In this document: positions 8,123 through 64,000 of the stretch, one piece after another
How positions within the stretch are numbered: the first letter of the stretch is position 1
Layout: each line of letters opens with the position of its first letter
Origin: Amphiscolops sp. MND2022
Lineage: Eukaryota
Length of the DNA: 64,000 nt
Direction of reading: 5' to 3'
Assembly (NCBI GenBank): GCA_964187785.1
Contig: OZ076409.1
Span: forward strand, 35,838,001 to 35,902,000
Program-made: the position numbers and the translations under genes
Notes under the pieces: model-generated
Seen by the model: only the letters and a program-made list of their open reading frames with translations
Database searches by the model: none
What the model was told of the DNA's origin: nothing

Positions 8123-9229
8123 GCACTTCGAAAAGACTTGGATATGTACTCTTTCCCATTATCAGAACGGATTGCGTTCCCACTTGCGCACAAACAACTT
8201 CGAGTTTATCTAGTCACTCGTTTTTCGATTTGAAGAAAAATACCGCTGCGTACCCGCTGTAGAAGTCCGCAAAGGAAATAGCGAAATGATTGCCACCAAG
8301 CGAAGTATTCAGCATCGGTCCCAAGCTGTCAGTGAGAACGGAATCAAGTTTCGAAGGTTTTTTTCTCCATTTTTCGCGATACTGGTTGCCGTCGTGATTT
8401 AGAAATTTTGCAATTTTCACAACAACAAATTTATCAAAAGCACTGTTTTTCAAACTCATTCCAGAAACATGAAGAGCCAAACATTTCACATTTTTGAAAT
8501 CGTTGCGACCAAGGCATTGATGCCACAGCATCGCTTCTTCGTTCTCACCGGAAAAAGAACAAAAATCAAATGTCTTTCCTTTCAAAACGTAAAGATCATC
8601 GTGCTCTTCAACAGGAATAGTTGCATTTCCATCAAGATTGACAAAAAAAGCTCAGAGATTGTCCGAAGTCCACCTTAGCCCCGCTTTGTGTCAACTTGCT
8701 AACGCTGATCATGTTATGAGAATGATCAGGAAGAAGACGTCACATTCGCATTTTTACTTTGCGTTTTTGTTTCTTCGCTAAAGTTGAAGAACAGAGAACG
8801 GTCAAAAAACATATGCGAGGAGGCACAAGAGTCGATGTATAAAGGGTGCTCCTTCATCTTGCATTTTTAGTTAGTGAGTGCAGTCTCACTACCATCGCAA
8901 CCAAAGTAAGTCCTCAACTAGGTTTGACTCTCCTGTCTAACCACTTGACCTAGGGTCCAAAAGAGGGTTTTTCTTGAACCATTCAGTCTTTTCATGGCCA
9001 GAAGGCCTGAAAAAAATACACTGGGAAACTCTACAAGTGGCTTGTTGAAGTGCACTTTTACCGCAACGGGTACACTTCCCAATAGAGTTTGCGCAAAGTT
9101 TGCGCGAGGAAGCTTTTCAGGATTGCGCGAGGAACTTGCCGCAGCAGTTCTTTGGAAAACAAAGCAACATTTTCATTGCTAGCTGTCGCAGTTTGTAGGT
9201 TACGAGAACTTTCAAAATTTTCAATTTTT

Positions 9230-19500: not shown

Positions 19501-22500
19501 AACAACAGCGGAAAAAACTTGAGAACTAAAAAATACAATTCCTTGATTTTTTTTTGAGATTTTGAAGTACTGGGGACACTAAAATGATACATTTGACATC
19601 AACGTTTTTTGAGCGAAAGACTACGTTTTCGACAAGGTTTCAAAATACACTAACAACTTATTAGTGAAGAGCCGAAAAACTTTCAAATCGTCAGAAATTG
19701 AGACGTTTCGGAGTTGTTTTGAGGAAGCCGAAACCCAGAACACTGTTGTCGCATACAGAACACACCAGGTGCCCGAGATAACTCCACCAGTGGTTTCGTA
19801 CCAGATGCCACACACACTCCGTCGTTTTCCGAAGACAAAGTCTGAAAGAAAACTGGTTATTCATTGACAACACTAGGAGTTAAGAAGGACATATCAAAAA
19901 AAACAACAGCGGAATAAACTCGAGAACTAGAAAATACAATTCCCTTATTTTTTTGAGATTTTGAAGTACTAGGGACACTAAAATGATACATTTGGCATCA
20001 AAGTTTTTTGAGCTAAAGATTACGTTTTTGACAAGGTTTGTAAAGACACTCATAACTTATAGTGAAGAGCCGAAAAACTTTAAAATCGTCAGAAATTTAG
20101 ACGTTTCGGAATTGTTTTGAGGAAGCCGAAACCCAGAACACTTGTGTCGCATAGAGAACACACCAGGTGCCAGGCAGAGATTGCTCCTCCAGTGGTTTCG
20201 TACCAGATGCCACACATTTTCCATCGTTTTCCAAAGACAAAATCGGAAACAAAATTGGTTATTCATTGACAACACGAGGAGTTAAGAAAACCATATAAAA
20301 AAACAACAGCGGAAAAAACTCGAGAACTAGAAAATACAATTCTTTGATTTTTTTTCGAGATTTTGAAGTACTGGGGACACTAAAATGATACATTTGACAT
20401 CAACGTTTTTTGAGCGAAAGACTACGTTTTCAACAAGGTTTCTAAATACACTAATAACTTATAGTGAAGAGCCGAAAAATTTTCAAATTGTCAGAAATTG
20501 AGACGTTTTGGAGTTGTTTTGAGGAAGCCGAAACCAAGAGCACTTGTGTCGCACACAGAACACACCAGGGGCCAGAGATAGCTCCTCCAGTGGTTTCGTA
20601 CCAGATGCCACACAAATTCCATCGTTTTTCGAAGACAAAGTCCGATTGAAAACTCTTTATTCATTGACAACACGAGGAGTTACGAAGGCCATATGAAAAA
20701 TACAACAGCGGAAAATACTCGAAAACTGGAAAATACAATTCCATGATACTTTTGTCGAGTTTTTGAAGTACTGGGGACACTAAAATGATACATTTGACAT
20801 CAACGTTTTTCGAGCGAAAGACTACGTTTTCGACAAGGTTTCTAAATACACTCATACCTTATAGTGAAGTGCCAAAAAACTTTCAAATCGTCAGAAATTG
20901 AGACGTTTCGGAGTTGTTTTGAGGAAGCCGAAACCCAGAACACTTGTGTCGCATACAGAACACACCAGGTGCCCGAGATAACTCCACAAGTGGTTTCGTA
21001 CCAGATGCCACACACACTCCGTCGTTTTCCGAAGACAAAGTCTGAAAGAAAACTGGTTCTTCATTGACAACACTAGGAGTTAAGAAAGCCATATAAAAAA
21101 CAACAGCGTAAAAAACTCGAGAACTAAAAAATACAATTCCTTGTTTTTTTTTCAAGATTTTGAAGTACTGGGGACACTAAAATGATACATTTGGCATCAA
21201 AGTTTTTTGAGCTAAAGACAACGTTTTTGACAAGGTTTCTAAAGACACTCATAACCTATAGTGAAGAGCCGAAAAACTTTAAAATCGTCAGAAATTTAGA
21301 CGTTTCGGAATTGTTTTGAGGAAGCCGAAACCCAGAACACTTGTGTCGCATAGAGAACACACCAGGTGCCAGACAGAGATTGCTCCTCCAGTGGTTTCGT
21401 ACCAGATGCCACACATTTTCCATCGTTTTCCAAAGACAAAATCTGAAACAAAATTGGTTATTCATTGACAACACGAGGAGTTAAGAAAGCCATATAAAAA
21501 AACAACAGCGGAAAAAACTCGAGAACTAAAAAATACAATTCCCTGATTTTTTTTCGAGATTTTGAAGTACTGGGGACACTAAAATGATACATTTGACATC
21601 AACGTTTTTTGAGCGAAAGACTACGTTTTCGACAAGGTTTCTAAATACACTAACAACTTATTAGTGAAGAGCCGAAAAACTTTCAATTCGTCAGAAATTG
21701 AGACGTTTCGGAGTTGTTTTGAGGAAGCCGAAACCCAGAACACTTTTGTCGCATACAGAACACACCAGGTGCCCGAGATAACTCCACCAGTGGTTTCGTA
21801 CCAGATGCCACACACACTCCGTCGTTTTCCGAAGACAAAGTCTGAAAGAAAACTGGTTATTCATTGACAACACTAGGAGTTAAGAAGGACATATCAAAAA
21901 AACAACAGCGGAATAAACTCGAGAACTAGAAAGTACAATTCCCTTATTTTTTTGAGATTTTGAAGTACTAGGGACACTAAAATGATACATTTGGCATCAA
22001 AGTTTTTTGAGCTAAAGACTACGTTTTTGACAAGGTTTCTAAAGACACTCATAACTTATAGTGAAGAGCCGAAAAACTTTAAAATCGTCAGAAATTTAGA
22101 CGTTTCGGAATTGTTTTGAGGAAGCCGAAACCCAGAACACTTGTGTCGCATAGAGAACACACCAGGTGCCAGACAGAGATTGCTCCTCCAGTGGTTTCGT
22201 ACCAGATGCCACACATTTTCCATCGTTTTCCAAAGACAAAATCGGAAACAAAATTGGTTATTCATTGACAACACGAGGAGTTAAGAAAGCCATATAAAAA
22301 AACAACAGCGGAAAAAACTCGAGAACTAGAAAATACAATTCCTTGATTTTTTTTTGAGATTTTGAAGTACTGGGGACACTAAAATGATACATTTGACATC
22401 AACAATTTTTGAGCGAAAGACTACGTTTTCGACAAGGTTTCTAAATACACTAATAACTTATAGTGAAGAGCCGAAAAACTTTCAAATTGTCAGAAATTGA

Positions 22501-25500
22501 GACGTTTCGGAGTTGTTTTGAGGAAGCCGAAACCCAGAACACTTGTGTCGCATACAGAACACACCAGGTGCCAGAGATAGCTCCTCCAGTGGTTTCGTAC
22601 CAGATGCCACACATTTTCCATCGTTTTTCGAAGACAAAGTCTGAATGAAAACTCGTTATTCATTGACAACACGAGGAATTAAGATGGCCATATGAAAAAT
22701 ACAACAGCGGAAAAAACTCGAAAACTAGAAAATACATTTCCATGATTCTTTTGTCGAGATTTTGAAGTACTGGGGACACTAAAATGATACATTTGACATC
22801 AACGTTTTTTGAGCGAAAGACTACGTTTTCGACAAAGTTTCTAAAAACAACAATAACTTATTGTAAAGAGCCGAAAAACTTTCAAATCGCCAGAAATTGA
22901 GACGTTTCGGAGTTGTTTTGAGGAAGCCGAAACCAAGAACACTTGTGTCGCATACAGAACACACCAGGGGACAGAGATAGCTCCATCAGTGGCTTCGTAC
23001 CAGATGCCACACAAATTCCATCGTTTTCCGAAGACAAAGTCTGAAACAAAACTGGTTATTCATTGACAACACGAGGAGTTAAGAAGGCCATATAAAAAAA
23101 CAACAGCGGAAAAAACTCGAGAACTAGAAAAAACAATTCCCTGATTTTTTTTTGAGATGTTGAAGTACTGGGGACACTAAAATGATACATTTGACGTCAA
23201 CGTTTTTTGAGCGAAAGACTACGTTTTCGACAAGGTTGCTAAATACACTAATAACTTATAGTGAATAGCCGAAAAACTTTCAAATCGTCAGAAATTGAGA
23301 CGTTTCGGAGTTGTTTTGAGGAAGCCGAAACCAAGAACACTTATGTCGCATACAGAACACTCCAGGAGCCAGAGATAGCTCCACCAGTGGTTTCGTACCA
23401 GATGCCACACAAATTCCATCGTTTTTCGAAGACAAAGTCCGATTGAAAACTCTTTATTCATTGACAACACGAGGAGTTACGAAGGCCATATGAAAAATAC
23501 AACAGCGGAAAATACTCGAAAACTGGAAAATACAATTCCATGATACTTTTGTCGAGTTTTTGAAGTACTGGGGACACTAAAATGATACATTTGACATCAA
23601 CGTTTTTCGAGCGAAAGACTACGTTTTGGACAAGGTTTCTAAATACACTCATACCTTATAGTGAAGTGCCAAAAAACTTTCAAATCGTCAGAACTTGAGA
23701 CGTTTCGGAGTTGTTTTGAGGAAGCCGAAACCAAGAGCACTTGTGTCGCACACAGAACACACCAGGGGCCAGAGATAGCTCCTCCAGTGGTTTCGTACCA
23801 GATGCCACACATTTTCCATCGTTTTCCAAAGACAAAATCTGAAAGAAAACTGGTTATTCATTGACAACACTAGGAGTTAAGAGGGACATATCAAAAAAAC
23901 AACAACGGAAAAAACTCGAAAACTAGAAAATACAATTCCCATATTTTTTTTGAGATTTTGAAGTACTGGGGACACTAAAATGATACATTTGGCATCAAAG
24001 TTTTTTGAGCTAAAGACTACGTTTTTGACAAGGTTTCTAAATACACTAATAACTTGTAGTCAAGAGCCGAAAAACTTTAAAATCGTCAGAAATTTAGACG
24101 TTTCGGAGTTGTTTTGAGGAAGCCGAAACCCAGAACACTTTTGTCGCATACAGAACACACCAGGTGCCAGAGATAGCTCCTCCAGTGGTTTCGTACCAGA
24201 TGCCACACATTTTCCATCGTTTTCCAAAGACAAAGTCTGAAACAAAATTGGTTATTCATTGACGACACGAGGAGTTAAGAAAGCCATATAAAAAACAACA
24301 GCGGAAAAAACTCGAGAATTAGAAAATACAATTTCCTGATTTTTTTTCGAGATTTTGAAGTACTGGGGACACTGAAATGATACATTTGACATCAACGTTT
24401 TTTGAGCGAAAGACTACGTTTTCGACAAGGTTTCTATATACACTAATACCTTATAGTGAAGAGCCGAAAAACTTTCAAATCGTCAGAAATTGAGACGTTT
24501 CGGAGTTGTTTTCAGGAAGCCGAAACCCAGAACACTTGTGTCGCATACAGAACACACCAGGTGCCAGAGATAGCTCCTCCAGTGGTTTCGTACCAGATGC
24601 CACACATTTTCCATCGTTTTTCGAAGACAAAGTCTGAATGAAAACTCGTTATTCATTGACAACACGAGGAATTAAGAAGGCCATATGAAAAATACAACAG
24701 CGGAAAAAACTCGAGAACTAGAAAATACAATTCCATGATTCTTTTGTCGAGATTTTGAAGTACTGGGGACACTAAAATGATACATTTGACATCAACGTTT
24801 TTTGAGCGAAAGACTACGTTTTCGACAAAGTTTCTAAATACAATAATAACTTATTGTAAAGAGCCGAAAAACTTTCAAATCGCCAGAAATTGAGACGTTT
24901 CGGAGTTGTTTTGAGGAAGCCGAAACCAAGAACACTTGTGTCGCATACAGAACACACCAGGGGCCAGAGATAGCTCCATCAGTGGCTTCGTACCAGATGC
25001 CACACAATTTCCATCGTTTTCCGAAGACAAAGTCTGAAACAAAACTGGTTCTTCATTGACAACACGAGGAGTTAAGGAGGCCATATAAAAAAACAACAGC
25101 GGAAAAAACTCGAGAACTAGAAAAAACAATTCCCTGATTTTTTTTTGAGATTTTGAAGTACTGGGGACACTAAAATGATACATTTGACGTCAACGTTTTT
25201 TGAGCGAAAGACTACGTTTTCGACAAGGTTGCTAAATACACTAATAACTTATAGTGAAGAGCCGAAAATCTTTCAAATCGTCAGAAATTGAGACGTTTCG
25301 GAGTTGTTTCGAGGAAACCGAAACCAAGAACACTTGTGTCGCATACAGAACACTCCAGGAGCCAGAGATAGCTCCACCAGTGGTTTCGTACCAGATGCCA
25401 CACAAATTCCATCGTTTTTCGAAGACAAAGTCCGATTGAAAACTCTTTATTCATTGACAACACGAGGAGTTACGAAAGCCATATGAAAAATACAACAGCG

Positions 25501-26924
25501 GAAAATACTCGAAAACTAGAAAATACAATTCCATGATTCTTTTGTCGAGATTTTGAAGTACTGGGGACACTAAAATGATACATTTGACATCAACGTTTTT
25601 CGAGCGAAAGACTACGTTTTCGACAAGGTTTCTAAATACACTCATACCTTATAGTGAAGTGCCAAAAAACTTTCAAATCGTCAGAACTTGAGACGTTTCG
25701 GAGTTGTTTTGAGGAAGCCGAAACCAAGAGCACTTGTGTCGCACACAGAACACACCAGGGGCCAGAGATAGCTCCTCCAGTGGTTTCGTACCAGATGCCA
25801 CACATTTTCCATCGTTTTCCAAAGACAAAATCTGAAAGAAAACTGGTTATTCATTGACAACACTAGGAGTTAAGAGGGACATATCAAAAAAACAACAACG
25901 GAAAAAACTCGAAAACTAGAAAATACAATTCCCATATTTTTTTTGAGATTTTGAAGTACTGGGGACACTAAAATGATACATTTGGCATCAAAGTTTTTTG
26001 AGCTAAAGACTACGTTTTTGACAAGGTTTCTAAATACACTAATAACTTGTAGTCAAGAGCCGAAAAACTTTAAAATCGTCAGAAATTTAGACGTTTCGGA
26101 GTTGTTTTGAGGAAGCCGAAACCCAAACACTTTTGTCGCATACAGAACACACCAGGTGCCAGAGATAGCTCCTCCAGTGGTTTCGTACCAGATGCCACAC
26201 ATTTTCCATCGTTTTCCAAAGACAAAGTCTGAAACAAAATTGGTTATTCATTGACGACACGAGGAGTTAAGAAAGCCATATAAAAAACAACAGCGGAAAA
26301 AACTCGAGAATTAGAAAATACAATTCCCTGATTTTTTTTTCGAGATTTTGAAGTACTGGGGACACTGAAATGATACATTTGACATCAACGTTTTTTGAGC
26401 GAAAGACTACGTTTTCGACAAGGTTTCTATATACACTAATACCTTATAGTGAAGAGCCGAAAAACTTTCAAATCGTCAGAAATTGAGACGTTTCGGAGTT
26501 GTTTTCAGGAAGCCGAAACCCAGAACACTTGTGTCGCATACAGAACAAACCAAGTGCCAGAGATAGCTCCACCAGTGGTTTCGTACCAGATGCCACACAA
26601 ATTCCATCGTTTTTCGAAGACAAAGTCAGAAAGAAAACTGGTTATTCATTGACAACACTAGGAGTTAAGAGGGACATATCAAAAAAACAACAACGGAAAA
26701 AACTCGAAAACTAGAAAATACAATTCCCATATTTTTTTTGAGATTTTGAAGTACTGGGGACACTAAAATGATACATTTGACATCAAAGTTTTTTGAGCAA
26801 AAGACTACGTTTTTGACAAGGTTTCTAAACACACTAAAAACCTATAGTGAAGAGCCGAAAAACTTTCAAATCTTCAGAAATTGAGACCTCTCGGAGATGT
26901 TTGAGGAAGCCGAAACCCAGAACA
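10525..26924. repeat. Tandem satellite array, ~395-403-bp monomer, about 41 copies
   Basis: Monomer landmarks (gtgaagagccgaaaaa; gaagtactggggacactaaaatgatacattt) recur every ~400 bp, e.g. starts at 10895, 11295, 12090, 12486 ... 26449, 26847. The ORF track repeats with the same period. Confidence 0.98.
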
Positions 26925-43872: not shown

Positions 43873-46800
43873 CCACCGCTCGATGAGAATCCCGAAGAGA
43901 TTCTGGTGGTTCATGATTGCGAACCGCTGTGACTGACGATCTGTCGTGTCTAGGCAGCGGTTGAGAGGCCTCTATCCATCAGTTGAAGAGAAACTGAAAG
44001 TCGTCATAGTCCTAGTTCTAACATAAACTTGATAATGGGTAAAGTAAAATAATTGAGTTGTGAGGGAGGCAAGAGATACGTTGATGATTGAGGTGGCTGA
44101 ATGACAAAGAGTTGCGATGAGAGCTCTTTAAAGGCAGGCTTGGGTAGATTCTTGGTGCAGATATCAGCAAAGATATTCTTTGTGGAGAGAGACATGGGAT
44201 AGTTGAATGCGTTTGTTCTAAACCAGTTGACGGAAGGTGTGGTGTCGGGTTTCTATGTTTGTTGGCGACAGGGTTACTGGCCAGTGCGACAGCAGAAGAA
44301 GCGTGTCTAACGTCATCAAGGAGAAGTATGTCGGCAAGCCTTGCAAATAGACTGCTTCATGTGCAGCTAAAGCTACGAAGCATTCTCGGCTTCACAAGAG
44401 CTAAGTGCCACACACCCTTGCTGTTTGGACGCCCAAGAGACAACCAAAAAAAAACTTATTTTGAAGCAAAAACCCGAAGTTGACTTGCGATCATCCTTGT
44501 CGGTAGCCCAATCGGAATCTGGAAAATCAAAAAGACCTAGTTTTTTAGAGCGATTAAGCACAAAGTGTTTCAATGCACACAAATGGGCTTCACCGGGAAT
44601 TGACACGAATTGCGCTTAAGTTTTAGACAGCAAAGCAAATTTCGCGGCGACTAACAACGGACAAATACATTAAGTTTCCAACTAAGCTACAATTTTGTTT
44701 CTGTTCGCAAAACTCAAGTGAATTTTCACTACCTTCCAAAGGGCAGTCCGATTTAGACTGTTTTGTTTGAGGTATAGCTGGCGTACTGATTGGTTTATAA
44801 TTAGACATATGGCTTTTGCGCAAAAATCCTTTGTAAATGATTGCTGACTAAGAGAAATGCGAGTGCGTGACTGTTCAACATCGCTTCCGAAAAACCAAGT
44901 CATTTCCCCGGATCATCAATGCTGAATGCATTGCTGAGTTTCGCCTCGAAGTCATGCAGTTTTTTGTTGTTGTTTGAAAAGTACAAAATGTCGTCGACCC
45001 AAAATAGTACGAAATTTTGGGGACCATTGGTCCCATCGCAACAAAAAAGACAATGATCCTCGGCAGACTTTACGAATTCGTTCTTCAAAAACCACTGAGT
45101 TGAGGTTTTGTTTCATTCGCTCTTTGCTTGTTTTAAACAATAAAGGCATTTTTGAAGCTTGTAAAAATGTGCTTCACTATTAGCCCCCGCTTGCGCAAAG
45201 CCTTCTGGTTGTTGTATGTAAAGTTCAACTCTTAAGTTCGCATCGAGGAAGGCTGAACGGACATCTAATTGAAAAACAAAAATCGACCACGAAGCAGCGA
45301 GCGCAAAACAAGACCTCAAGGTACAAAGTTTGGCAGTAGGCGCACAAATTTCATCCTACTTGCTCCCACAAACATGCAAAACACCTTGGGATACGAAACG
45401 AGCCTTGAATTTCTCAATTGATCTGTCGTCGTGTCTCTTAGTTTTGAAAACCCACCGGCTTCCAATTGCCTTTCGACCCTGCGAAAGCAGCGAAAGCATC
45501 CAGCTTTTGTTTTCAATGAGCGGATTGTACTCCTTTTGAGTAGCTTCGATGCATTCGCTTTTAAGCTATGGCTTCATTGCTTCACAATAAGTTAGATTCT
45601 CATCACTGTCATTCGTTAACAGAACGTAGTCGTCAAGATACGCAGGAGGTTTGATAATTCTCCTAATTCGAGACCGCGAAAACACTACTTTCAATAGCCT
45701 CAATGATTTCAGATGAAACAACATCAACGGGGGAAGAAGTTGTTCCAGTTTCGATATCATTCAATGTTCCAGTCGGTAAAACAGGAACTGGAGACTTTTC
45801 GCAAAATTTTTTCTGTGTTTCAGGCAAAACTTTTTTCTGTGCCGGCTTTTGGATAACAAGCGCTCAAATGTTTTGACTTAGGTGCGCAGTAAAAGAGTCA
45901 CAAGAAGTCTCATTAAGGGAGACGTTGCGAGAAAGCGAAGTCTGTTTAGAGTAAAGACTGTACAAAATGTGTGCTTCAGAATCCTCAGAAGAACCAACAA
46001 AAAGTTTTTTGGTGGTTTATCGGAAAGATTCTCTTGATGCGTTTCGATGTGTTTGAAAGCAGTACACCCAAAAATTTTCAAATTGGAAAGATCTGGTTTT
46101 TTACCAAAGACCGTTTCGAAGCGCGCTTTACATTTTGGTAAACTTACTGTGAGGCAAAGGTTTGAAATGTAAAAAGCAATGAGTAAGAGCCGAATCCAAA
46201 ATTCATTGCCGAAATTGGATGTTTTTAGCATGCAACGAGCCATTTCGACTGTTGTTTGGCAGCGACGTTTACTCACACCATTTTGATGAGGCGAATAAGG
46301 GGCTGTATGCTCACCTTTGATTCTGTTTGACATACAAAAACATCGAAAAGACTTGGGCATGTCCTCTTTCCCATTATCAGAACAGATTGCTGTGGGCATT
46401 CCCACTTGCGCACAAAAAAGTTTGAGTTTAACTAGGCACTCGTTTTTCGATTTGAAGAAAATTACCGCTGCGTACCTGCTTTAGCATCGGTCTCAAACTG
46501 TCAGTGAAAACGAGATCAAGTTTCGAAGTTTTTGTCTCCATTTTTGTGATACTGGTTGCCGTCGTGATTTAGAAATTTTGCAAACTTCACAACAACAAAG
46601 TTTATCGAAAGCACAGTTTTTCAAACTCATTCCCGAAACATGAAGAACCAAACATTTCACAATTTTGAAATCGTTGCGACCAAGGCGTTGATGCCACAGC
46701 ACCGCTTCTTCGTTCTCACCGGAAAAAGAACAAAAATCAAATGTCTTTCTTTTCAAAACGTAAAGATTATCGTGCTCTTTAAGAGGAATAGTTGCAAATC

Positions 46801-48030
46801 CATCACGATTGACAAAAATGCTCAGAGATTGTCCGGAGTCCACTTGAGCCCCGCTTTGTGTCAACTTGCTAACACTGATAATGTTATGAGAATGATCAGG
46901 AAGAAAACGTCCCATTCGCATTTTTACTTTGCGTTGTGTTTCTTCGCTAAAGTCGAAGAACAGAGAACGGTCAAAAAACATATGCGAGGAGGCACCAGAG
47001 TCGATGGATAAAGGGTGCTCCTTAACCTTGCATTTTTGGCTAACGAGTGCAGTCTCACTACCTTCGCAAAAAAAGGTAAGTCCTCAGCTAGGTTTGATTC
47101 TCCTGTCTCAGCACTTGACCTAGATTCAAAAGATGGTTTCTCTTGAAACATTCATTCTTTTCATGGCCAAAACGCCTGCAAAAGTTGTACTGGGATACTA
47201 TACAAGTGGCTTGTGTAAGTCCACTTTTACCGCAACGCCTATACTTCCCAGTGAAGTTTGGGCGATGTTTGCGCGAGGAAGCTTTTCAGGTTTGCGCGAG
47301 GAACTTCCTGCGGCAGTACCTTTGGAAAACAAAGCAACATATTCATCGCTAGCTATCACAGTTTATAGGTTACGTCAACTACCGAAATTTTTATTGCCTC
47401 TTTACCTTTGCAAAAGACGCCTTATTTCTCGAAAAAACGTGCACAATTTTGAAATAGTCATACTCGGAAGGCAAACCCTTGAGAATTTTTGAAAATAACA
47501 TGTTTTCAGAAATTTTCTCACCAGCCGGCTACAACTGCTTACTCACATACAACGCTCGAGTCAGGTAGTCAACGATGCTCTCCGTGGGCTTTAATCACAG
47601 GGTTGTGATCTTCTCCAATAGGTTCATCAACTTCGGTGTTTCGGTGCTGTTGCAGACAACATCAGGAAAATGCGGCAGTCAAGACACTGTTTCAAGTATG
47701 CCCAAATGTAGTACTTCTTTTAATTCGTACCAGCATCTGTCCCATTCAGCACGTTCAGCACCTTCTTTGTGAAACAGAACCCCTTCGAATTGCTCCTGCC
47801 CGCGACAGACAGAAGGAACTAACTGAAACCAAAACGGGCAACAAAACAGGAATTTCCACGAATACATGCTACAATTATAAAGGAAGCAGAACGGTGGTAA
47901 CGGACGTCATAAATAGCAGAAACTGTGGATATCCGAGACGCAGAAAGCAAAAATTGAGAACGAGAAATAAAGATCAGACAAGCATAGTGAGAGTAGGCGA
48001 GAAAAAAAGTTAAAAACCAAACTCGCCAAT

Positions 48031-54110: not shown

Positions 54111-54170
54111 CATCAAAAATTTTGTTAACTGACAATTACCTATCATCGACCCTGTAGATGCTTCGGGATG

Positions 54171-55140
54171 AATTAGGTCCAGTTTGTAGAATACCAGTTT
54201 GTAGATTTTTACATACTGGTCCTAGGTGTTCCAGTTTGTAGAATTTATTTCTACAAACTGCATCATTGAATTCTACTATTTGTACATCCTTGACGCAAGA
54301 TCCTGAGAGCTCCACTGACTAAGATCTAAAGGAACAAGATCTAAAAACTGCAATGGGGGGTATATCCGGTGTATGCACCTCGCCCTCACTGTCGCAAAGA
54401 CCAGCTCCCAGAACTATCGCTTCGCGATCTCCGTTCCAACTAAGTCTATGCTCCTGTTCGACTGTTCGACCTCGCTTAGCAAGATGGGAGCATAGGTGGG
54501 CCCAAGGGGCCGCGGGGCACTGGAAGAAATGTGGACTTCTACAAAACTGGAGGGAATGGGAAACTCTACAAACTGGACCTCACTTTTCCACAAATTGGAC
54601 TCTACAAACTGGTTTTCTACAAACTGGTTAGGACCAGTTTGTAGAATACCAGTTTTTAGAATTCTGGAATTGAAGAAAAACAATAAGGCTAATAATGTAG
54701 GAATGATGCAAAGTATAAAACGTGCCTCGGACATTACCCCATTTCTTCTAGTGCCCAGCAACCCCTTGGGGCAGCTTACGCTCCCATCTTGCTAAGCGAG
54801 GTCGAACATGAGCAAAAAACCAGCGGGAACGGAGATCGCGAAGCGATCGTAGTGGGAGCTGGTCTTTGCGACGGTGAGGGCGATCGTGCATACACCGGAT
54901 ATGCCCCACATTTCAGTTCTTAGATCTTATTCCTTTAGACCTTGAGCAAGGGAGCTCTCAGCATCTTTTGTCAAGGATGTCCAGTTTGACAAATTTAACG
55001 ATCCAGTTTGTAGAATTTAATGATCCAGTTTGTAGAATTTGACAATCCAGTTTGTAGAAAAAAAATTCTACGAATTGGAGCACCTAGGACCAGTTTGTAG
55101 AACTCTACAAACTAGTTTTCTACAAACTGGACCTAAATCG
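54171..55140. mobile_element. Foldback/MULE-like element or head-to-head pair with ~360-400-bp inverted arms
   Basis: 54171-54532 is the diverged reverse complement of 54738-55138 (ttaggtccagtttgtagaa ... ttctacaaactggacctaa); ttctacaaactgg subrepeats; no TSD found. Confidence 0.8.
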
Positions 55141-55714
55141 AGAAGGGTCTCACATCGTCAACTTGTGCACTGAATCAGCTTACGAGTGGGCGAGGTCTTG
55201 AAGAGGTGATAACTCATGAGGAATTACCAAAAAGAATTGTCGTGAGGGAAAACACTACTTGCAGGTAGTTTCTATTTGATAAGCACTCATATGAAGCATA
55301 CATACAACAATTAGGCTAACATAAATAAAACAACATTATATACCAGTAATGATAACTACATATGTATTACATTCATAACTTTCATTTTAAAAACCAAAAA
55401 ACTGCAATAAACCATAAGGCTTATGGCTGCCGAACTATTTTTTTCCTCTATCAGATATCATGGATCTTCATCATCACTCAGGTGCCTTGTGCATCATCAT
55501 GTTGGGGGAGAAGACACACACCCGTGGTCATCAACGAAACTAGGGAACCCCATACCAGCGACTATCCCAGTAGACCAGTAACAAAATAAAACAACCAACA
55601 AACTACTCATACCAGCCACTGTTCCAGTCGACCGGTAGACTTTTTTTAAAGCTGCAATGATATACATGTTTTGAAAAAAAATTCAAATAAGTTTCAAAAT
55701 TTCTTCGAACACAT

Positions 55715-56729
55715 CTCTCGCTCACAGTTTCTAGAACACAGGCCGCATTGCCAATCTGAAGGGCCATTGAAATCCGTTGCTTCGAAAAGTTGTCAGCTCG
55801 TTGATCGTCGTGCGAACGAAAGAGCATTTTACAAAGACGCGTGATGAAAAATTCACTGCTCTCGCCTAAAAAACCCTGAACTCCCAAGGCCACCGGTTGA
55901 AAATTGTTTCCAATGTCTATTAATTCGCGATACTTCTCAATTTTACGCGCTTCAGCCTCGGTGGCGGTGGTTCCCGGGTTGCATAAAGAGGGGTAACTGT
56001 AAATAGAACGAATTTTTCATGTCGAAAGAACAGAGGCGGAACCTTTTGATCGAATTGCAGGGATCGAATGGAATGCGGTCGAATTTCATCGTAACCTTCG
56101 GGTCGAAAACGTTCTTTGTTTGCCTCAACTCGATTGACAAGCTAATTGTGGGGTATATGCTGTGTATTCACGCTCGCCCTCGCAAAGACCAACTCCCACT
56201 ACGATTGCTTCGCGATCTCCGTTCCCGCTGGGTTTTTGCTCCTGTTCGACCTCGCGTAGCAAGATGGGAACATAAGCGGCCCCAAGGGTCTGCGGGGCAC
56301 TAGAGGAAATGAGTACATATCCGGGACACGTTTTATACTTTTCTAGAAAATTCTATCTGCGGCAATTCGATTTGTTTGCCAAAAATCAAAAGTTCGATCC
56401 GAGTTGTTTCGATCCTATTCAAAAATATGGTATGTCGACCCGAGGACTAACTCTGATTTTCGTCCCGTTCCTTCGACTTATTTCCGCCCACTCCATAAAG
56501 AGCCTTGATTCAGTCAGCTGGTTGCAAGAGCATCCACATCAAGATAACACCGTCTGGGAGTTTGCCATCAGTTCGGTACAGTCCACGCGGTTCAAGCACT
56601 GAAGGCAAGTCGAGAGAACCCAACGTCTGGTTTATGAGAGAATTGAGTGTAGAATGACGTGAGAAGCGACCAGCAACCTTGGTGCAAGAAAGACCGTGTA
56701 AACCGTCCTGCTCAATTTTTACCACATTG
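55715..56729 (-). pseudogene. CRE-like non-LTR retrotransposon C-terminal restriction-like endonuclease (RLE) fragment, split by an insertion
   Basis: [37 protein letters not shown](L/R)PDG (56510-56729), continuing after the insert as CNPGTTATEAEARKIEKY..FQPVAL..G..QRISMALQIGNAACVL (55725-55985). Confidence 0.85.
55991..56493. mobile_element. 503-bp non-autonomous Mutator (MULE)-like insertion
   Basis: Exact 9-bp TSD CATAAAGAG (55982-55990, 56494-56502); imperfect termini GGGTAACTGTAAATA / rc GAGTGGGCGGAAATA; removing it rejoins the CRE reading (NQGSL-CNPG). Confidence 0.82.
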
Positions 56730-56911
56730 GCACGCGATTCCGGACGTTTCAGCAAAAGACGTTTTGGTAAAAACATGGCGGCGGACATTTCGGCAAAAAA
56801 ATATGCCGGAACCTCTCAGGCTAAAAACATTTGCCGAAACTTTTCGTATGATATGTGTGGCATATCGGGTGTATGCACGCTCGCCCTCACCGTCGCAAGG
56901 ACCAGCTCCTG

Positions 56912-57899
56912 CTACTTGCAGGTAGTTTCTATTTGATAAGCACTCATATGAAGCATACATACAACAATTAGGCTAACATAAATAAAACAACATTATATAC
57001 CAGTAATGATAACTACATATGTATTACATTCATAACTTTCATTTTAAAAACCAAAAAACTGCAATAAACCATAAGGCTTATGGCTGCCGAACTATTTTTT
57101 TCCTCTATCAGATATCATGGATCTTCATCATCACTCAGGTGCCTTGTGCATCATCATGTTGGGGGAGAAGACACACACCCGTGGTCATCAACGAAACTAG
57201 GGAACCCCATACCAGCGACTATCCCAGTAGACCAGTAACAAAATAAAACAACCAACAAACTACTCATACCAGCCACTGTTCCAGTCGACCGGTAGACTTT
57301 TTTTAAAGCTGCAATGATATACATGTTTTGAAAAAAAAATTCAAATAAGTTTCAAAATTTCTAAATTCCAAAAATCAAAAGTTCGATCCGAGTTGTTTCG
57401 ATCCTATTCAAAAATATGGTATGTCGACCCGAGGACTAACTCTGATTTTCGTCCCGTTCCTTCGACTTATTTCCGCCCACTCCATAAAGAGCCTTGATTC
57501 AGTCAGCTGGGTGCAAGAGCATCCACATCAAGATAACACCGTCTGGGCGTTTGCCATCAGTTCGGTACAGTCCACGCGGTTCAAGCACTGAAGGCAAGTC
57601 GAGAGAACCCAACGTCTGGTTTATGAGAGAATTGAGTGTAGCATGACGTGAGAAGCGACCAGCAACCTTGGTGCAAGAAAGACCGTGTAAACCGTCCTGC
57701 TCAACTTTTACCACATTGGCACGCGATTCCGGACGTTTCAGCAAAAGACGTTTTGGCAAAAACATGGCGACGGACATTTCGGCAAAAAAATATGCCGGAA
57801 CCTCTCAGGCTAAAAACATTTGCCGAAACGTTTCGTATGATATGTGTGGCATATCGGGTGTATGCACGCTCGCCCTCACCGTCGCAAAGACCAGCTCCC
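56912..57899. repeat. Local duplication of 55255-55702 joined to 56380-56910 (includes a second CRE RLE fragment at ~57483-57724)
   Basis: ORFs 55362-55589 and 57019-57246 are identical; ORFs 56510-56788 and 57499-57777 are near-identical. Confidence 0.93.
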
Positions 57900-58067
57900 A
57901 TTACGATCGCTTCGCGATCTCCGTTCCCGCTAGGTCTTTGCTCCTGTTCGACCTCCCTTAGCAAGATGGGAAAATAGGCGGCCCCAAGGGGCCGCGGAGC
58001 ATTAGAGGAAATGGGGATTTATCCGAGGCACGTTATTTGCTTTGCATCATTCCTACATTAATGGTCT
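57725..58067. mobile_element. Left arm of another MULE/foldback-like element (ggacgtttc.gcaaaa subrepeats plus shared core), cut by the Gypsy end
   Basis: Begins abruptly within the CRE zinc-knuckle coding sequence and carries the GC-rich core at 57847-58060; truncated copy at 56736-56910. Confidence 0.6.
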
Positions 58068-58200
58068 TGTAACGTTCCGAGATGATTGTTTTGTTGAATT
58101 TGAAGGATTTTCGGGACGCGTTGAGTTGACTGGAATGCTTTTTGAAGAAGGTTTTATATTGAAAATCAAATAAGGAGATACGTTGAGTTCGTGTTGTTAT
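58068..58200 (-). repeat. Probable distal part of the Gypsy 3' LTR
   Basis: Minus strand ends CGTTACA (TGTAACG on +) exactly where flanking repeat homology stops, and contains caatataaaa. The second LTR is not in the window. Confidence 0.5.
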
Positions 58201-58824
58201 CACTAGTACCACCCTGGTCTGGGTTGCTCAAGACACTCAATTTTCTGAAATTTCTTGTAATTTCTTCCACTGACGCATTATTGGGGACCAAAAGCAACTG
58301 ATACAGGTTAGATGATTCCATTTGTTTAAAATTTTCATGTAGCTGTGTAAGGTTCATTCGAAGTTCATCACACTGTCTTCTACCTTCGTCTAATTCGCCA
58401 AAAACATTTTCATAGTCATCTTGCCACACTTGTAATGTTCTTTTTAACTTCTTGAGTTCGTGTTTTTGCTCCTGGTTCTCCTTTGTAACTCCTGTGCCGC
58501 TTGTTGCCACAGGTACTTTTGTTGCCCCAACTTCTCGGCAGTGTGCTTCTCACGGGCTAACTCATCTTTGAAAGCTTGCAGTTGGTACTTGTGACTTTCG
58601 AGTTCTATGGCCACCGCTGCGACTGACGCCTTCAAGCTGGCTGCTTCCGTTTGGGTCATCTCGATTCTGCCGGTAATTGATGAAGGGAACAAAGTACCCG
58701 CTTCTGCCACCTTTCTGATCTTGCTAACAGACCCCTGCACTCTGTAGACCCCAGTCTTTACCACAGATTTGATGACAAAAACTTCAGGGAGGTAGTAAAC
58801 GCGATCATCCACATTGAAAGTCAT
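58166..58824 (-). pseudogene. Accessory ORF B: N-terminal module + coiled coil + truncated J-domain (one frameshift near 58510-58530)
   Basis: MTFNVDDRVYYLPE... (58444-58824 frame), then ...NLYQLLLVPNNASVEEITRNFRKLSVLSNPDQGG (58166-58510 frame), i.e. J-domain helices I-II with NPD in place of HPD. Confidence 0.8.
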
Positions 58825-59172
58825 CTAAAGGAGACAAAAAGACAACTGAAATGAACCAACAAGAAAAATGAAGCAGCATATATACATACATATATACATA
58901 TATAAACATATATATACATATATACAGATATATTTTGGCGTGATGATACCCATCTCTTTCGAGAACGACGCTCGTTCGTATAGTTCATTGCAGTTAGATC
59001 CAGTTTTAACAGAGCGAAGCCCGGTCTGAATTTTTCCTGAGGAGATGTAACCCATCTCTACTCAATCGAGCGCAACCCGTTCGCTAGTATTTCATTTGTT
59101 AAGGAACGAACCCCGTTCCCTCTTTTTTTAAATTTTTTCTAGAAATTTTTTTAATGTATATATATATTTGTT

Positions 59173-59928
59173 TTAGTCGCTCCACCTTGATTGTCTTGAC
59201 AACTCTTCCTCAGCACGCTCAAGTCCAAACAAGTTATACAATTCTCTGGCCATTTTATTTGAAAGTACGGAATAAGCTCTGTGGATAGATTTAAACTGTT
59301 CTTCGCAGCCATTCACATCGGCGTGAGTTAGAGACGCTAACTTCTTGTAATTCCGTTTGATTGTCTCTTCATCCGCATCTTCCTTGACGAAACGAACCTC
59401 ATTCAAGGTGAAAAGACGTTGAATCAAGGTTTTTTGCTTTATTTCTTTGATGAGTTTTTCAGTGACCTTAGCCTTCGCCCGTTCACTTCTAACAAGAGTT
59501 CTTTGCTTTTCCAAATCTTCGCTCAGTCGCCTTATCTTGTCTTTGTGTGTATGTACATCCATCTCAAGCTGGTGGATATACCTTCGTGCATCTTCAACCT
59601 CCCGATGCACGTTTCTTCCTTCACAATGTAGGCGCTCTTTCAGATTGTTCACTTCTGCCTTGGTGAGCTCCAACTCTTGTCGAATCCCGCCAAGTTGGGT
59701 GGTGGAAATGTCCGATCTCATCTTGATGTTGGATGGACTGAGGGTGTCTTCCGTTGCAATTTTTTGCATCCCCGAGACACATCCTTGAATTCGATACAAG
59801 CCCGGTCCCACTTTCGATTTGATTTGATGAAGTTCGGGCAAGTAGTATACATATTCATTTATACGGTTGTTTTCCATTTCTAAAAAAGTTAAAGGATTTT
59901 TAATGGTTTCATGATTCCTGTTTGTCAT
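59173..59928 (-). CDS. Accessory ORF A: N-terminal module + coiled coil + C-terminal DnaJ-type J-domain (251 aa)
   Basis: Uninterrupted ORF. VKEDADEETIKRNYKKLASLTHADVNGCEEQFKSIHRAYSVLSNKMARELYNLFG fits the J-domain consensus (A...IK.AY.KLA...HPD....E.FK.I..AY.VLS....R..YD..G); E/K/R/L-rich heptad middle region. Confidence 0.88.
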   Translation of the reverse strand: MTNRNHETIKNPLTFLEMENNRINEYVYYLPELHQIKSKVGPGLYRIQGCVSGMQKIATEDTLSPSNIKMRSDISTTQLGGIRQELELTKAEVNNLKERLHCEGRNVHREVEDARRYIHQLEMDVHTHKDKIRRLSEDLEKQRTLVRSERAKAKVTEKLIKEIKQKTLIQRLFTLNEVRFVKEDADEETIKRNYKKLASLTHADVNGCEEQFKSIHRAYSVLSNKMARELYNLFGLERAEEELSRQSRWSD

Positions 59929-61960
59929 TCAGTGTAACGTGCAATTTTGTTTCTGATGAGTTTTGTGCATCATTTAGGAGCTTTGAGGATCTGGGTTGTT
60001 GATTTTTGAGCTCCTTAACATCTAATAAAAATTTATTGTATTCATAAAACTGATTGAGCGGTTGCAAAGCAAATCGCGTTTTCGTACCCAACCGTTTCAA
60101 TCAAATTATGAAAACTATTTTGAATCCTAGTCGAACCAGCATTCCGATTAACGTGATTGTCAGAATAGTTACTGCTATCTCTCTCGCTATCCACCAAAAA
60201 AACAGCGTTTCCTTATTTACCGATTGAAACCACGGTAGTACTCTCCAGCTGAACCCAATCTGGTGCTCTGGAAAATTGAGATGAAACAAACTTTCATGCG
60301 AGTACGTGCCTTTTGAACCCAGATACACCTCTCTACCGGTTACTGTTGTACGGCTCTGGCGGATGGAGCGCGCGCGATTGCTTCTAACGAGATCTTCCAT
60401 TGTGAACAACCCATTACCATTCAAACCCACAAAGTTATGTGGCCTTAGTTCCCGTGAAGAGCTGTTCCGAAAACAACAGGTTCGACTCGCGCTAGTTCGG
60501 TTGTTTTTCCATACGTCACCCAGGATCCGTTTAGCAACTGATACAAATTGGGGTACACTGGGTTGCATTCGGTCAGTGTGTAGTTGTTGTCAAAAATCTT
60601 TGAAATTGGATTCATGAATTTAATCACGGACCCTTTCCCATCGCCAAGTCTCACAGGGATTTCTTCTGTGCAGAAGTCTAAAGTTGCCAGTGTAATTTCC
60701 ATTTTTGCACATCTGTGTAAGTATACAACCTCGCCCGCACGTTCAATATGTGTTCCCACCATCTCGTCCCCACTTATTGCACTGTCGAGATTTGAAATTA
60801 ACACATCTTGAATTCGACATCTCTGGTAGTTGACTTCCTGCCAAGCTCGTTCCATTTCCTGTAACCCTTGGGCATGTAAGAAATCAACTTTGCTCTGTAG
60901 GAGCGTTTCTTCGCCAATGTTGTTCATAATTTTAACTGGTAAATCTGTACTTCGAATGAAAACAAAATTCCCTTCATGATGGTTGGGTAAACTGTAAAGT
61001 TACACAAAGAAACGGGCTGGTTATGAATTTCCAGTGCGAACTTTCTGCCTTGTCTGTTGCTAACGAATCCCGTTAGCATGCTGTTTTTTTCACCAACTAA
61101 TTTGATCACATTGTTTCTTCCATTTATGCCGAAGAGTTTATAAAGGTCGCACTCTTTTGGCTTGGCCACCAAGTAAACCACAAAATCTTTTTCGAAATCA
61201 GTTTCGATGTCGTCGCTTGTTATAGGGTTTCCGAGAGGGTCGTTCCACTTATGGAAGTTGCTTCCGCCAAGTTGCTTCCGCCAAGTTGCTTCTGAGTGAA
61301 CACTTTTCCAATTGTCAGTCGTCCATTGATGAGGACAGACGCTTCAATTACCTCTCCTGTTGGTGTTGTCCATTCAATTGGTGTTGAAAACCCAATCCCT
61401 TTTCCTTTAGCTTTCATAAATTTTTCTGAGTAGTCGAAGTTCTTAAACAACTCATGCTGAAAATTATTAACTTCTTCTATATCAGTCTTTTTCAATTGGA
61501 ACCGATTTTGCTGAATCCCGGTAATATGAAAGGTTTTGCTGCCCACGCCTGACGACAAATTACAATCGAAATCAAGTAAAATGTTGGTAAAATCTTTGAT
61601 TTTTCATGTAAATACAGTCCATTATCATAAACAGATGATTTTTTCATGTACGACACCGTATACGAGGCTTGATAATGACAAGTTTTCATTTCCCGCCTAC
61701 CGTCGTTGTCGCTGAACACCACTGAACCACGTGGCACTGATGCCATCTCACTCGAACATCGAGTACAATTTTTTTGATCAGTTAAGGAGTACACCGTGGT
61801 CCCTACAACTTGCTCGAAGTCGTATACTACAGTTTTAATGTTTTCTTCTTGCACCGATACAGCAATAATAATCAAAAGTAGTATTATCTTGTTATCTGTG
61901 TCTCTGTTTTCTCTTGGGATTTGCATTCTTTTTCCGTGTTCTCGGCTGCTCCTAATTTCC
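59909..61960 (-). pseudogene. env: env-like glycoprotein resembling chuvirus-type G proteins, broken into about 6 ORF pieces
   Basis: Signal-like KIILLLIIIAVS followed by VVYD; motif block AGEVVYLHRC...CTEEIPV...FMNPIS...ECNPVYPNLYQLLNGSW; GLFTMEDL; C-terminal hydrophobic WWIAREIAVTILTITLIGMLVRLGFKIVFII. Lies directly 3' of integrase. Confidence 0.75.
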
Positions 61961-63559
61961 TGAAGCAAAAACGTCGTTGTCATCGAAAGAAGTATCGTCA
62001 TTGTACGCAAAATAGTCACCGAATCTTTTCGGAACTGATCGGATACGAGTACTTTTCTCCCTTTGTGGCACTATTGGAGGCATTCTCTTGTTTTTTGGTT
62101 TCGTAACTTTTGTTTGAGGCGTTTTTAATGGAAGCGATTCATTGTTAACTCCCTCTGCATAACTTTTCATTCTTGCTCCGGCATCAGATTCCTTTAAATC
62201 GCTTGTGCTCGCAGTAGGCCCTTGTTCGCTTTCGGTACTTTTTTGCCTCTCATCTGGATTGGCTACTCGTTCTCTCTTTCCTAATTTACCTATCTGTTCA
62301 ATCTCAACCTCTATTAAGTCGTAATCGATGATCCCAGATTCGTCTGTTTGTTGAGTTTCAGTGTGTTCCTGGGTTCCGCTCATTCTTGTGAAGATTCGCT
62401 CCCGCGGTTTGTACTTTTTCATTCGATCGTAATGTACTTTGATTACTTTTCTGGTCTCTTCGTGGCACACACGGAAATTCAGATCGTTGATTATTTCGAG
62501 AATTTTGTACGGTCCTCTGTAGAACGAAGTGAACTTCTTTGTTTGTCCCTTCTTTACTGTAGGGAAGAAAATAAGCACTTGTTCACCCACGTGGTAGACA
62601 GGGCCATATGCCCGGTAATCATAATACGTTTTCTGTTGTGTTTGTTCTAATTCCATGTGCGATCTCACAAGATAGTGAGCTTTTTGAAGTTCTCTCTTTG
62701 TGTTGTAAATAAAATCACTCGGAGTCGGGAATAATTCGGTATGACGTGTCTCGTACATACAATCAATCGGTAATCTCAATGGTGTTCCCATCACAAGATA
62801 GTTTGGACTATGTTTAGTGACTGCATGAATTGACGAGCGATATGCCATCATGACCAGTTGCAAATAACAGGTCCAATCGCTCTGGTGATTATCGATGTAT
62901 TTCGAAAAGCTTTCTTCAATTGTCCGGTTTGTTCTTTCAATCATCGCATTGCCTTCTGGATGAAAAGGAGTGGTGGATGTCCGTTCAATGCCCAAAACAC
63001 GACACAACTCTGTAAAGAGTTCCGACATAAAATTTGTTCCTTTATCACTATGTAAATTCACGGGACATCCGAATTTCGTGATCCAGTTATCGACTAATGC
63101 TTGTGCGACTGTTTTTGCTTCCTGATTTGCCATGGCAACGGTTTCGAACCATTTACTAAATTGATCACCAATCAACAAAATGTACTTTTGGCCATTGGAT
63201 TCTGGCAAAGGACCCATCACATCTAATGATACCTGCCAAAAAGGATGGCTCGGTTTCCACATTTTTAGACTGTGTCTGTGTTTCTGTGGGGTGCCTTTTC
63301 TCCTCAAGCATTTATCACAGCTTTGAACCCAGCTGTTCACGTCTCGTTTCATCCCAGGCCAAAAGAACCGTACTTGAGCTCTCTGATATGTCTTTTCGAT
63401 TCCGAAATGGCCTGTGCACGGAGACTTGTGCAGCAATGGTAGTCTTTTGGAAATTTGATTCTCCGCAACAATAAGCTGATGTGCCCAACGATCTCCGTCT
63501 TCTAATTTTTTTGTTCTGAAGAGAAGTCCTTGTATCAACGTGAGGTTCTTAAAGTCCAC
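61952..63559 (-). CDS. pol: Gypsy pol, integrase portion (HHCC, DDE, GPY/F)
   Basis: LHKSPCTGHFG..FFWPGM..CDKC; VSLDVMGPL; LHSDKGTNF; HPEGNAMIERTNRT; YRGPYKI; open for 535 codons. Confidence 0.96.
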   Translation of the reverse strand: MDFKNLTLIQGLLFRTKKLEDGDRWAHQLIVAENQISKRLPLLHKSPCTGHFGIEKTYQRAQVRFFWPGMKRDVNSWVQSCDKCLRRKGTPQKHRHSLKMWKPSHPFWQVSLDVMGPLPESNGQKYILLIGDQFSKWFETVAMANQEAKTVAQALVDNWITKFGCPVNLHSDKGTNFMSELFTELCRVLGIERTSTTPFHPEGNAMIERTNRTIEESFSKYIDNHQSDWTCYLQLVMMAYRSSIHAVTKHSPNYLVMGTPLRLPIDCMYETRHTELFPTPSDFIYNTKRELQKAHYLVRSHMELEQTQQKTYYDYRAYGPVYHVGEQVLIFFPTVKKGQTKKFTSFYRGPYKILEIINDLNFRVCHEETRKVIKVHYDRMKKYKPRERIFTRMSGTQEHTETQQTDESGIIDYDLIEVEIEQIGKLGKRERVANPDERQKSTESEQGPTASTSDLKESDAGARMKSYAEGVNNESLPLKTPQTKVTKPKNKRMPPIVPQREKSTRIRSVPKRFGDYFAYNDDTSFDDNDVFASGN

Positions 63560-64000
63560 TCAAAACTTCCATAGTTCCCTAGAAGCTCCGTTCATGTTTT
63601 TTCGATCAGGTCTCTGCTTTTCTTCGATCCATTTAGGACTTTCTTTATGTTGTTATCTTCATGCTGTTTCATTTGCATACTATTACGATCTGTATTCTGG
63701 ATTAACATCCATGGGTTCGCAGGATGTTCCTCCATTGTCGTGTTTTCTCTCAGTGCTGCCACATAGACAGTTATCGGATCTTCCTCCTCCGGCAGTACTC
63801 GCGATAAACAATCTGCATGAGGGATGCTTCTACCCGCTTTATGTTTAATTTCGAAGTCAAATTGTCCAAGTTTTTCCAACCAACGTGCAACCATCCCTTC
63901 TGGATCTTTGAAACTGTAGAGCCATACCAAAGCTCTGTGATCAGTAACTATTGAAAATTTTCTACCTAAGAAATAGGTTTTGAAATGATTTGTAAAATGG
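63560..64000 (-). pseudogene. pol: Gypsy pol, RNase H and linker (frameshifted relative to integrase)
   Basis: HFKTYFLGRKFSIVTDHRALVWL..DPEGMVARWLEKLGQFDFEIKHKAG...HADCLSR. Confidence 0.92.

Follow-up and report, generated by a model that had tools for sequence, protein, structure and literature searches.

A putative SH3-like head on two paralogous J proteins, probable cargo of a Ty3/gypsy element, may direct host Hsp70 to a conserved nucleoprotein target

Results

Genes at the locus

The window, i.e. the whole 64,000-nucleotide stretch of DNA analysed here, is eukaryotic, rich in repeats and about 39% GC. It contains remnants that resemble copia and BEL elements and satellites, as labelled from translations. 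Near its end four genes follow each other on the minus strand in the order pol-env-J1-J2. The 3' part of pol (61952..63999, minus strand) encodes RNase H and then integrase with H2C2, rve and p58 C-terminal domains, which is the Ty3/gypsy order; it has one frame change near 63590 and runs off the window. It is followed by a gene for an env-like fusogen of the gB/class III type (60101..61926, minus strand), which in a three-frame reading lies in five pieces with at least four frame changes. The env-like gene encodes a hydrophobic stretch at the N-terminus and another, transmembrane-like, at the C-terminus, and Monjiviricetes_fusion (PF24664) matches it at 60448-60927 only (E 6.9e-14). One of its frame changes coincides with a 14-base tandem repeat of 2.7 copies at 61255-61292, and in run X1 the length of env differs by 21 bases at 60801.

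The J1 gene (59173..59877, minus strand, 234 aa) is separated from env by about 220 bases. It comprises an N-terminal module, a helix or coiled coil of about 100 residues and a C-terminal J domain at about 59200-59406 (PF00226, E 5.6e-12); its frame is open. After a further gap of about 350 bases comes the J2 gene (58196..58824, minus strand), which is broken: a frameshift lies near 58480, the gene is truncated at 58196 behind the HPD loop, and its match is limited to positions 1-33 of PF00226 (E 1e-6). The HPD motif is altered in both J genes and thus intact in neither. Because pol has one and env at least four frame changes, HPD is lost from both J genes and J2 is frameshifted and cut, this copy of the element is dead. 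A repeat search of the window placed a dispersed repeat (57838..58068) beyond the truncated J2. The window has no dispersed repeat between 58070 and 64000 and no repeat boundary between env and J1, and neither a 3' LTR nor a polypurine tract could be placed in it.

Splice-acceptor-like sites on the minus strand precede both J genes. Before J1 a pyrimidine tract with TAG (59879..59901) ends two bases ahead of the ATG, and before J2 the corresponding site (58824..58848) directly adjoins the ATG. A third site at the end of pol (61959..61983) lies 33 bases before the probable start of env. By a crude pyrimidine-tract score over the 415 minus-strand AG dinucleotides these sites ranked 7, 2 and 17, respectively, with six other AG sites within the top 8. 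The upstream in-frame peptides of several relatives are compatible with a pyrimidine tract plus AG, which is only suggestive. We infer that J1 and J2 may each be read from a spliced subgenomic mRNA of its own. Just upstream of the J2 pyrimidine tract there is a (CATATA)-type microsatellite at 58877-58933, and the peptide upstream in P0046 indicates this type of repeat in another copy as well.

Contigs of a marine metagenome run contained short pieces, 95-98% alike, that cover J1, env and pol, and one contig piece of a second run covers J1. No piece in the contigs of these two runs spans two genes, and J2 is without cover there.

The remainder of the window holds further repeats. A satellite array at 10559-26924 consists of 41 copies of a 397-base unit with 91% matches. 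Near-identical direct repeats at 55255-57667, which are 1657 and 989 bases apart and agree to 99-100% over 300-base references, suggest that this stretch was recently duplicated locally or is a repeat of the assembly; in run X1 parts of this region were at high depth. A dispersed, partly inverted repeat family, MITE- or Helitron-like by reading, is present at 54170-55139, 56147-56341 and 57838-58068, the last of these being the copy just past J2. Translation reading also identified two decayed copia-like elements (5500-8700 and 45878-47083) and a BEL/Pao-like relic (324-2474).

Likeness of the J1 and J2 modules and selection

The module lies at 59716..59865 in J1 and at 58666..58824 in J2, both on the minus strand. 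The initial annotation had quoted a 42-residue string from each with 24 ungapped identities. Both strings are present as quoted (J1 59850-59725, J2 58800-58675, minus strand), and 24 of 42 is far above the identities obtained from 10,000 shuffles of one string (mean 2.9, SD 1.6, maximum 11). BLASTP of the J1 against the J2 open reading frame yielded 31 identical residues of 88 (E 2e-17).

At the DNA level the modules agree in 65 of 126 bases, i.e. in 24, 29 and 12 of 42 at codon positions 1, 2 and 3, and 18 of the 24 identical residues are specified by different codons. By the method of Nei and Gojobori pS was 0.92, which is saturated and leaves dS undefined, while pN was 0.35. Since third positions rarely match, pS is saturated and pN is low, the likeness appears to be kept at the level of the protein. 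The comparison of synonymous and non-synonymous divergence places dN/dS far below 1, and not near 1, the value that the initial annotation had named as a refutation; the module of J1 and J2 is thus under purifying selection.

The divergence of the coiled coils and of the DNA, likewise claimed at the outset, is evident. BLASTN of the full-length J1 gene against the full-length J2 gene gave nothing below E 0.19. Between J1-type and J2-type proteins the coiled coil is 10-27%, the J domain 40-46% and the module 45-60% identical. In 27 of 28 pairs among eight lineage representatives the module surpassed the J domain in conservation; the sole exception was J2c versus J1b with 0.45 against 0.46.

Copies and relatives of the pair

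J1-like and J2-like proteins were collected by word-based searches, all records being from ENA or Logan; contigs of equal length were counted as the same, which is an inferred identity. Close J1 relatives (J1a) are carried by 15 long contigs and close J2 relatives (J2a) by at least 17, of which at least nine are in common and at least 23 exist altogether. A second family consists of J1c and J2c, which are about 57% and 40-44% identical to their counterparts in the first; four of the six contigs that bear J1c also carry J2c. In a tree of 12 natural proteins J1a/b/c and J2a/c formed two supported clades, with long branches flagged. Since the J1 clade and the J2 clade each hold both families, the duplication is older than the families. 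Together with the saturated synonymous sites this supports the earlier proposal of an old duplication maintained by selection on the protein.

The HPD motif is intact in 37 of the 42 protein records that reach it, and window J1 accounts for two of the other five. Many relatives have premature ends or frame changes, which is the pattern of dead copies of an element. In the open reading frame P0059 the first 30 residues of J1c are joined to a gypsy integrase that is 71% identical to that of the window. Linkage of the pair to pol and env is seen directly in the window only; elsewhere it is likely, as suggested by the contigs of equal length and this single chimeric frame. P0051, P0098 and P0108 are intact, diverged members and could be host genes.

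A profile of six module sequences was run exhaustively against 1.84 billion representatives at E ≤0.001. There were 57 matches, 52 of them with the module. Most of these 52 proteins are short or change frame, and every frame of sufficient length continues with a coiled coil followed by a J domain. The remaining five were discarded as chance: P0075 and P0100 are tandem-repeat, adhesin-like proteins, P0111 combines a J domain with repeats, and P0089 and P0101 matched in the same multi-stretch pattern. P0111 looks bacterial and has its J domain at the N-terminus and four almost identical repeats at the C-terminus; its module match was weak (E 2e-4). No named host DNAJ family with the module was among the matches of this exhaustive search. 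A DNAJ family of well-studied animals with such a head should have surfaced, and its absence argues against the module being the N-terminus of an ordinary host DNAJ family, the outcome that the initial annotation had named as a refutation.

The 31 modules that were aligned fall into 16 groups at 60% identity, without insertion or deletion in the core. PF00226 was matched by nine of the 31 proteins, and the other matches listed were weak or of the coiled-coil type; no Tudor, PWWP or KOW family was among the best 25 of 108 Pfam families for these proteins. None of the six modules matched a Pfam family at E 10. The module was also without a match in PDB sequences, and the J2 module of the window matched no PHROGs family. 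It had no match in the ESM Atlas, where a blank indicates neither absence nor novelty. One of the six modules gave a weak match to MarR in NCBIfam (E 0.042), which was rejected. Pattern searches for a related locus yielded 79 matches in viral contigs and 61 in metagenome contigs, none of which was confirmed. By these comparisons the module is a candidate unannotated domain. In P0083, P0085, P0110 and P0116 a lysine-rich short tandem repeat is located upstream of the module, in frame according to the gene caller.

Predicted structure of the head

We modelled the module of J2, below called the head; that of J1 is assigned the same fold by alignment. AlphaFold with five sequences of the full protein predicted a confident 100-residue helix and the J domain, with pLDDT values of 35-46 for the head. 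For the head by itself, with 17 sequences, pLDDT was 86-94 over residues 1-50, and four of five models were above 73 overall. The J2 model has strands at residues 8-11, 14-23, 26-31 and 37-41, a short helix at 42-44 and a strand at 46-47. Such a set of five strands, in which a short helix precedes the fifth, is characteristic of an SH3-like barrel, and thus the model and the fold searches are in line with the small SH3/Tudor/KOW-like barrel that had been suspected from the sequence pattern.

Foldseek found no match of the head in the PDB at E ≤0.001; PWWP, Agenet and Tudor domains headed its list. VIA-align returned 121 of 48,161 chains at Z ≥5, and named Tudor, PWWP, KOW, chromo or SH3 domains predominate among the top 50 rows. 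The leading chains were 6kco (PWWP; Z 7.6-7.7, rmsd 6.3 over 65), 3qii (Tudor; Z 7.3, rmsd 1.2 over 47), chain Z of 5oik (Spt5 KOW; Z 7.2, rmsd 2.1 over 52) and 6if4 (Tudor; Z 7.0, rmsd 1.3 over 49). All fold matches of the head are tied at Z below 8, a score that according to the tool reflects a common arrangement without functional meaning. Because Tudor, PWWP and KOW domains are tied in this range, the result gives the fold class as SH3-like without assigning a family. A search for viral folds with the module produced uncharacterised phage barrels at best (E 8e-4), and with the whole protein it matched the J domain and nothing else.

The individual families were compared with the model. Unlike PWWP domains, the head has L-P-E-(L/V/I) in place of the motif, and its barrel continues into one long helix without a helical bundle. 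The KOW domains of Spt5 and NusG tie with the head in fold; there is no Pfam match, and the loop after strand 1 is L-P. The loop between strands 1 and 2 has nothing but this pair of residues; G, S and variable residues make up the end of strand 3 together with the loop behind it. In Tudor and PWWP domains the cage residues normally lie in the loop joining strands 1 and 2 and in the region of strands 3 and 4, which here contain L-P-E, G and S. Aromatic residues are conserved at head positions 8, 10, 11, 16 and 27, and those at 11, 16 and 27 face the core by strand alternation. A methyl-reading aromatic cage thus looks to be absent from the model.

Basic residues are frequent at positions 19, 28, 35, 37, 38 and 53, with weighted fractions of 0.75, 0.78, 0.70, 0.84, 0.62 and 0.85 (31 modules, 16 groups), and the predicted head has a conserved basic face. 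The module carries a net charge of just -1 to +3, so that binding of nucleic acids by the head is not obvious.

The notion that the head derives from the C-terminal SH3 domain of the element's own integrase received no support. The hhalign probability against this tail was 0.1-0.2% in a profile comparison of low power with a single-sequence target, and integrase tails were not among the best 50 rows of the fold search. Prediction of a complex of J1 and J2 gave a score of 0.01, which speaks neither for nor against one.

The J domain

The J-domain helices of the model span residues 158-217 with a pLDDT of about 90; the four helices of a J domain are present and the fold searches matched J domains. 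The closest J domains are those of DNAJA1 and Sis1, suggesting a donor of the cytosolic type and Hsc70 as the partner. J1 and J2 differ from class A and B Hsp40 proteins in having the J domain at the C-terminus, behind a coil. By the order of their parts, predicted head, coil and J domain, the two proteins are class C J proteins of a new architecture. Intact copies very likely recruit Hsp70.

Discussion

We favor the view, with a probability of roughly 55%, that the module serves as a targeting head, of predicted SH3-like (Tudor/KOW-type) fold, for two paralogous J proteins encoded behind env of a gypsy element; these are likely accessory cargo of the element and would likely recruit host Hsp70 to a conserved nucleoprotein target. 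Its parts differ in strength. That J1 and J2 are cargo of the Ty3/gypsy element is highly probable, and that the head selects the target is fairly probable. Identifying the target with a host nucleoprotein complex is tentative and falls somewhat short of an even chance.

The proposed sequence of events would be as follows. The proteins are expected to be soluble because no hydrophobic leader or membrane stretch is visible. The coil may dimerise them or space the head from the J domain by about 100 residues, and the J domain would stimulate an Hsc70 of the cytosolic type. The conserved basic and tyrosine face of the head would bind a host nucleoprotein complex that evolves slowly, be it one of chromatin, of transcription or an RNP. 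Hsc70 might then remodel this complex to the benefit of the element, by the same logic as with the J domain of the SV40 T-antigen.

The client might instead be the element's own machinery. In that case Gag, the genomic RNP or the integration complex would be the ligand of the head, with Hsc70 aiding particle assembly or uncoating in an auxilin-like manner. The genes are on the same element with signals of co-expression, and host Hsp40 and Hsp70 work in virus assembly and uncoating according to the available part of PMC7356129. Yet the head is as much as 45-60% identical between J1 and J2 and free of indels in 16 groups, and this unusual constancy would be easier to explain by a target that evolves slowly than by Gag, which diverges fast. 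We therefore regard a client from the element as rather unlikely. The basic face of the head fits an acidic partner or one that contains nucleic acid, and, taken together with the constancy, it favors the host nucleoprotein complex.

A narrower version of a host target makes the head a true Tudor or PWWP reader of methyl-lysine or methyl-arginine, which would steer Hsp70 to methylated histones or PIWI proteins and thereby counter silencing. The top folds do include the Tudor domains of PHF20, PHF19, SMN, SPF30 and TDRD3 as well as PWWP and Agenet domains, and plant J proteins work with chromatin readers, as far as described in the accessible sections of PMC8616336 and bioRxiv 10.64898/2026.09.14.751381. 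However, Spt5 KOW domains score level with the Tudors, Pfam detects no Tudor, PWWP or KOW domain in the six modules compared, and the places where the cage usually sits have no conserved aromatics, positions 11, 16 and 27 falling in the core. Methyl reading by the head is thus quite improbable.

Equally improbable, in our estimate, is that the J genes form a host family specific to the lineage or are part of some other mobile unit, and that they merely adjoin the gypsy copy or were recently swept up by it. The full context comes from one locus, and intact, diverged proteins do exist. Against this, no fewer than 23 long contigs have near-identical copies, many of which are broken. A second family again has both genes, P0059 links the module to a gypsy integrase, and about 220 bases, free of any repeat boundary, separate J1 from env, which lies on the same strand. 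Least probable is a head that acts as a self-association cap nucleating the coiled coil of untargeted Hsp70 stimulators or decoys: it would suit the exposed tyrosine pair (8 and 10) and the conserved linker (P47, R53) running directly into the long helix, but six conserved basic positions exceed the needs of a cap, and the head outdoes the J domain in conservation in 27 of 28 pairs.

The preferred reading, a head that directs Hsp70 to a host nucleoprotein complex, can be extended to a bolder one, which we consider doubtful. Here an env-bearing gypsy lineage would be built like a complex retrovirus and use two Hsp70 co-chaperones with a new reader-like barrel, made from separate spliced mRNAs and kept as a pair across families, to bind and dismantle host chromatin or silencing RNPs. 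If true, this would be a T-antigen-like, chaperone-driven anti-silencing weapon inside a retrotransposon. The purifying selection on the pair in at least two element families, with the head surpassing the J domain in conservation, points to a function that the element needs. Knowing the partner of the head would show whether retroelements have to take apart a host defence or whether a chaperone acts at some step of their life cycle.

Comparison with known systems

DNA viruses bring J domains of their own to redirect Hsp70, and LTR elements capture extra genes. Our search of the literature, in which subscription journals were thinly covered, found no J protein encoded by a retroelement. Env-bearing Ty3/gypsy elements ('errantiviruses') with an env of the HSV/gB type have been described across invertebrates (PMC13524379, as far as available). 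The window element resembles them in having pol, then a gB/class III-type env, and multiple similar copies; unlike them it has two further genes behind env. The terms 'J-domain', 'chaperone' and 'dnaj' do not occur in the accessible main text of that article, whose supplements, outside this scope, might list the element. Extra open reading frames of other LTR retrotransposons include the bdelloid ORF3 with a GDSL esterase or a DEDDy exonuclease (PMC5408684) and chromodomain and helicase genes (PMC6338049), both as given in the portions available. Such accessory genes were captured 3' of pol, as is probable for J1 and J2; the cargo here differs in being a duplicated Hsp70 co-chaperone with a barrel head, besides env. 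In the available part of PMC13547354, which deals with extra open reading frames of LTR elements, DnaJ, J-domain, Tudor and chaperone terms are absent.

The T-antigen of SV40 and other polyomaviruses directs Hsc70 at Rb-E2F through its J domain (PMC7356129, available part). Like J1 and J2, it comes from a parasite and links its J domain to a targeting part, a role that in our case is proposed by analogy. It differs in that it stems from a DNA virus, has its J domain at the N-terminus and a known target, Rb-E2F, whereas the J domain of J1 and J2 is C-terminal after the coil. No sequence relation was seen outside the J domain.

The SH3-like barrels of 6kco, 3qii, 6if4 and chain Z of 5oik share with the modelled head the five strands and the short helix before the last. 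They are 8-20% identical to it, and the model differs from them in a very short strand 1-2 loop and in having no visible cage or PWWP motif.

Among plant J proteins SILENZIO acts with MBD5/6 (PMC8616336), and JDP1-4 combine an N-terminal J domain, reported to be dispensable, with an H3-binding DUF3444 (bioRxiv 10.64898/2026.09.14.751381), according to the parts of these sources at hand. They couple a J domain to chromatin targeting, as proposed for J1 and J2; unlike J1 and J2 they are host genes, and they have no sequence match to the module.

Class C J proteins bring Hsp70 to chosen clients through a second domain (PMC10410713, available sections). Tudor, SH3 and transposon terms are absent from the available main text and supplement of this survey. 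J1 and J2 resemble the class C proteins described there in joining a J domain, with HPD intact in most copies, to a putative client-selecting domain and in lacking a G/F region and class A/B C-terminal domains, and differ from the surveyed members in a head without a Pfam match. The pair adds an unannotated domain and a head-coil-J architecture to the class C J proteins.
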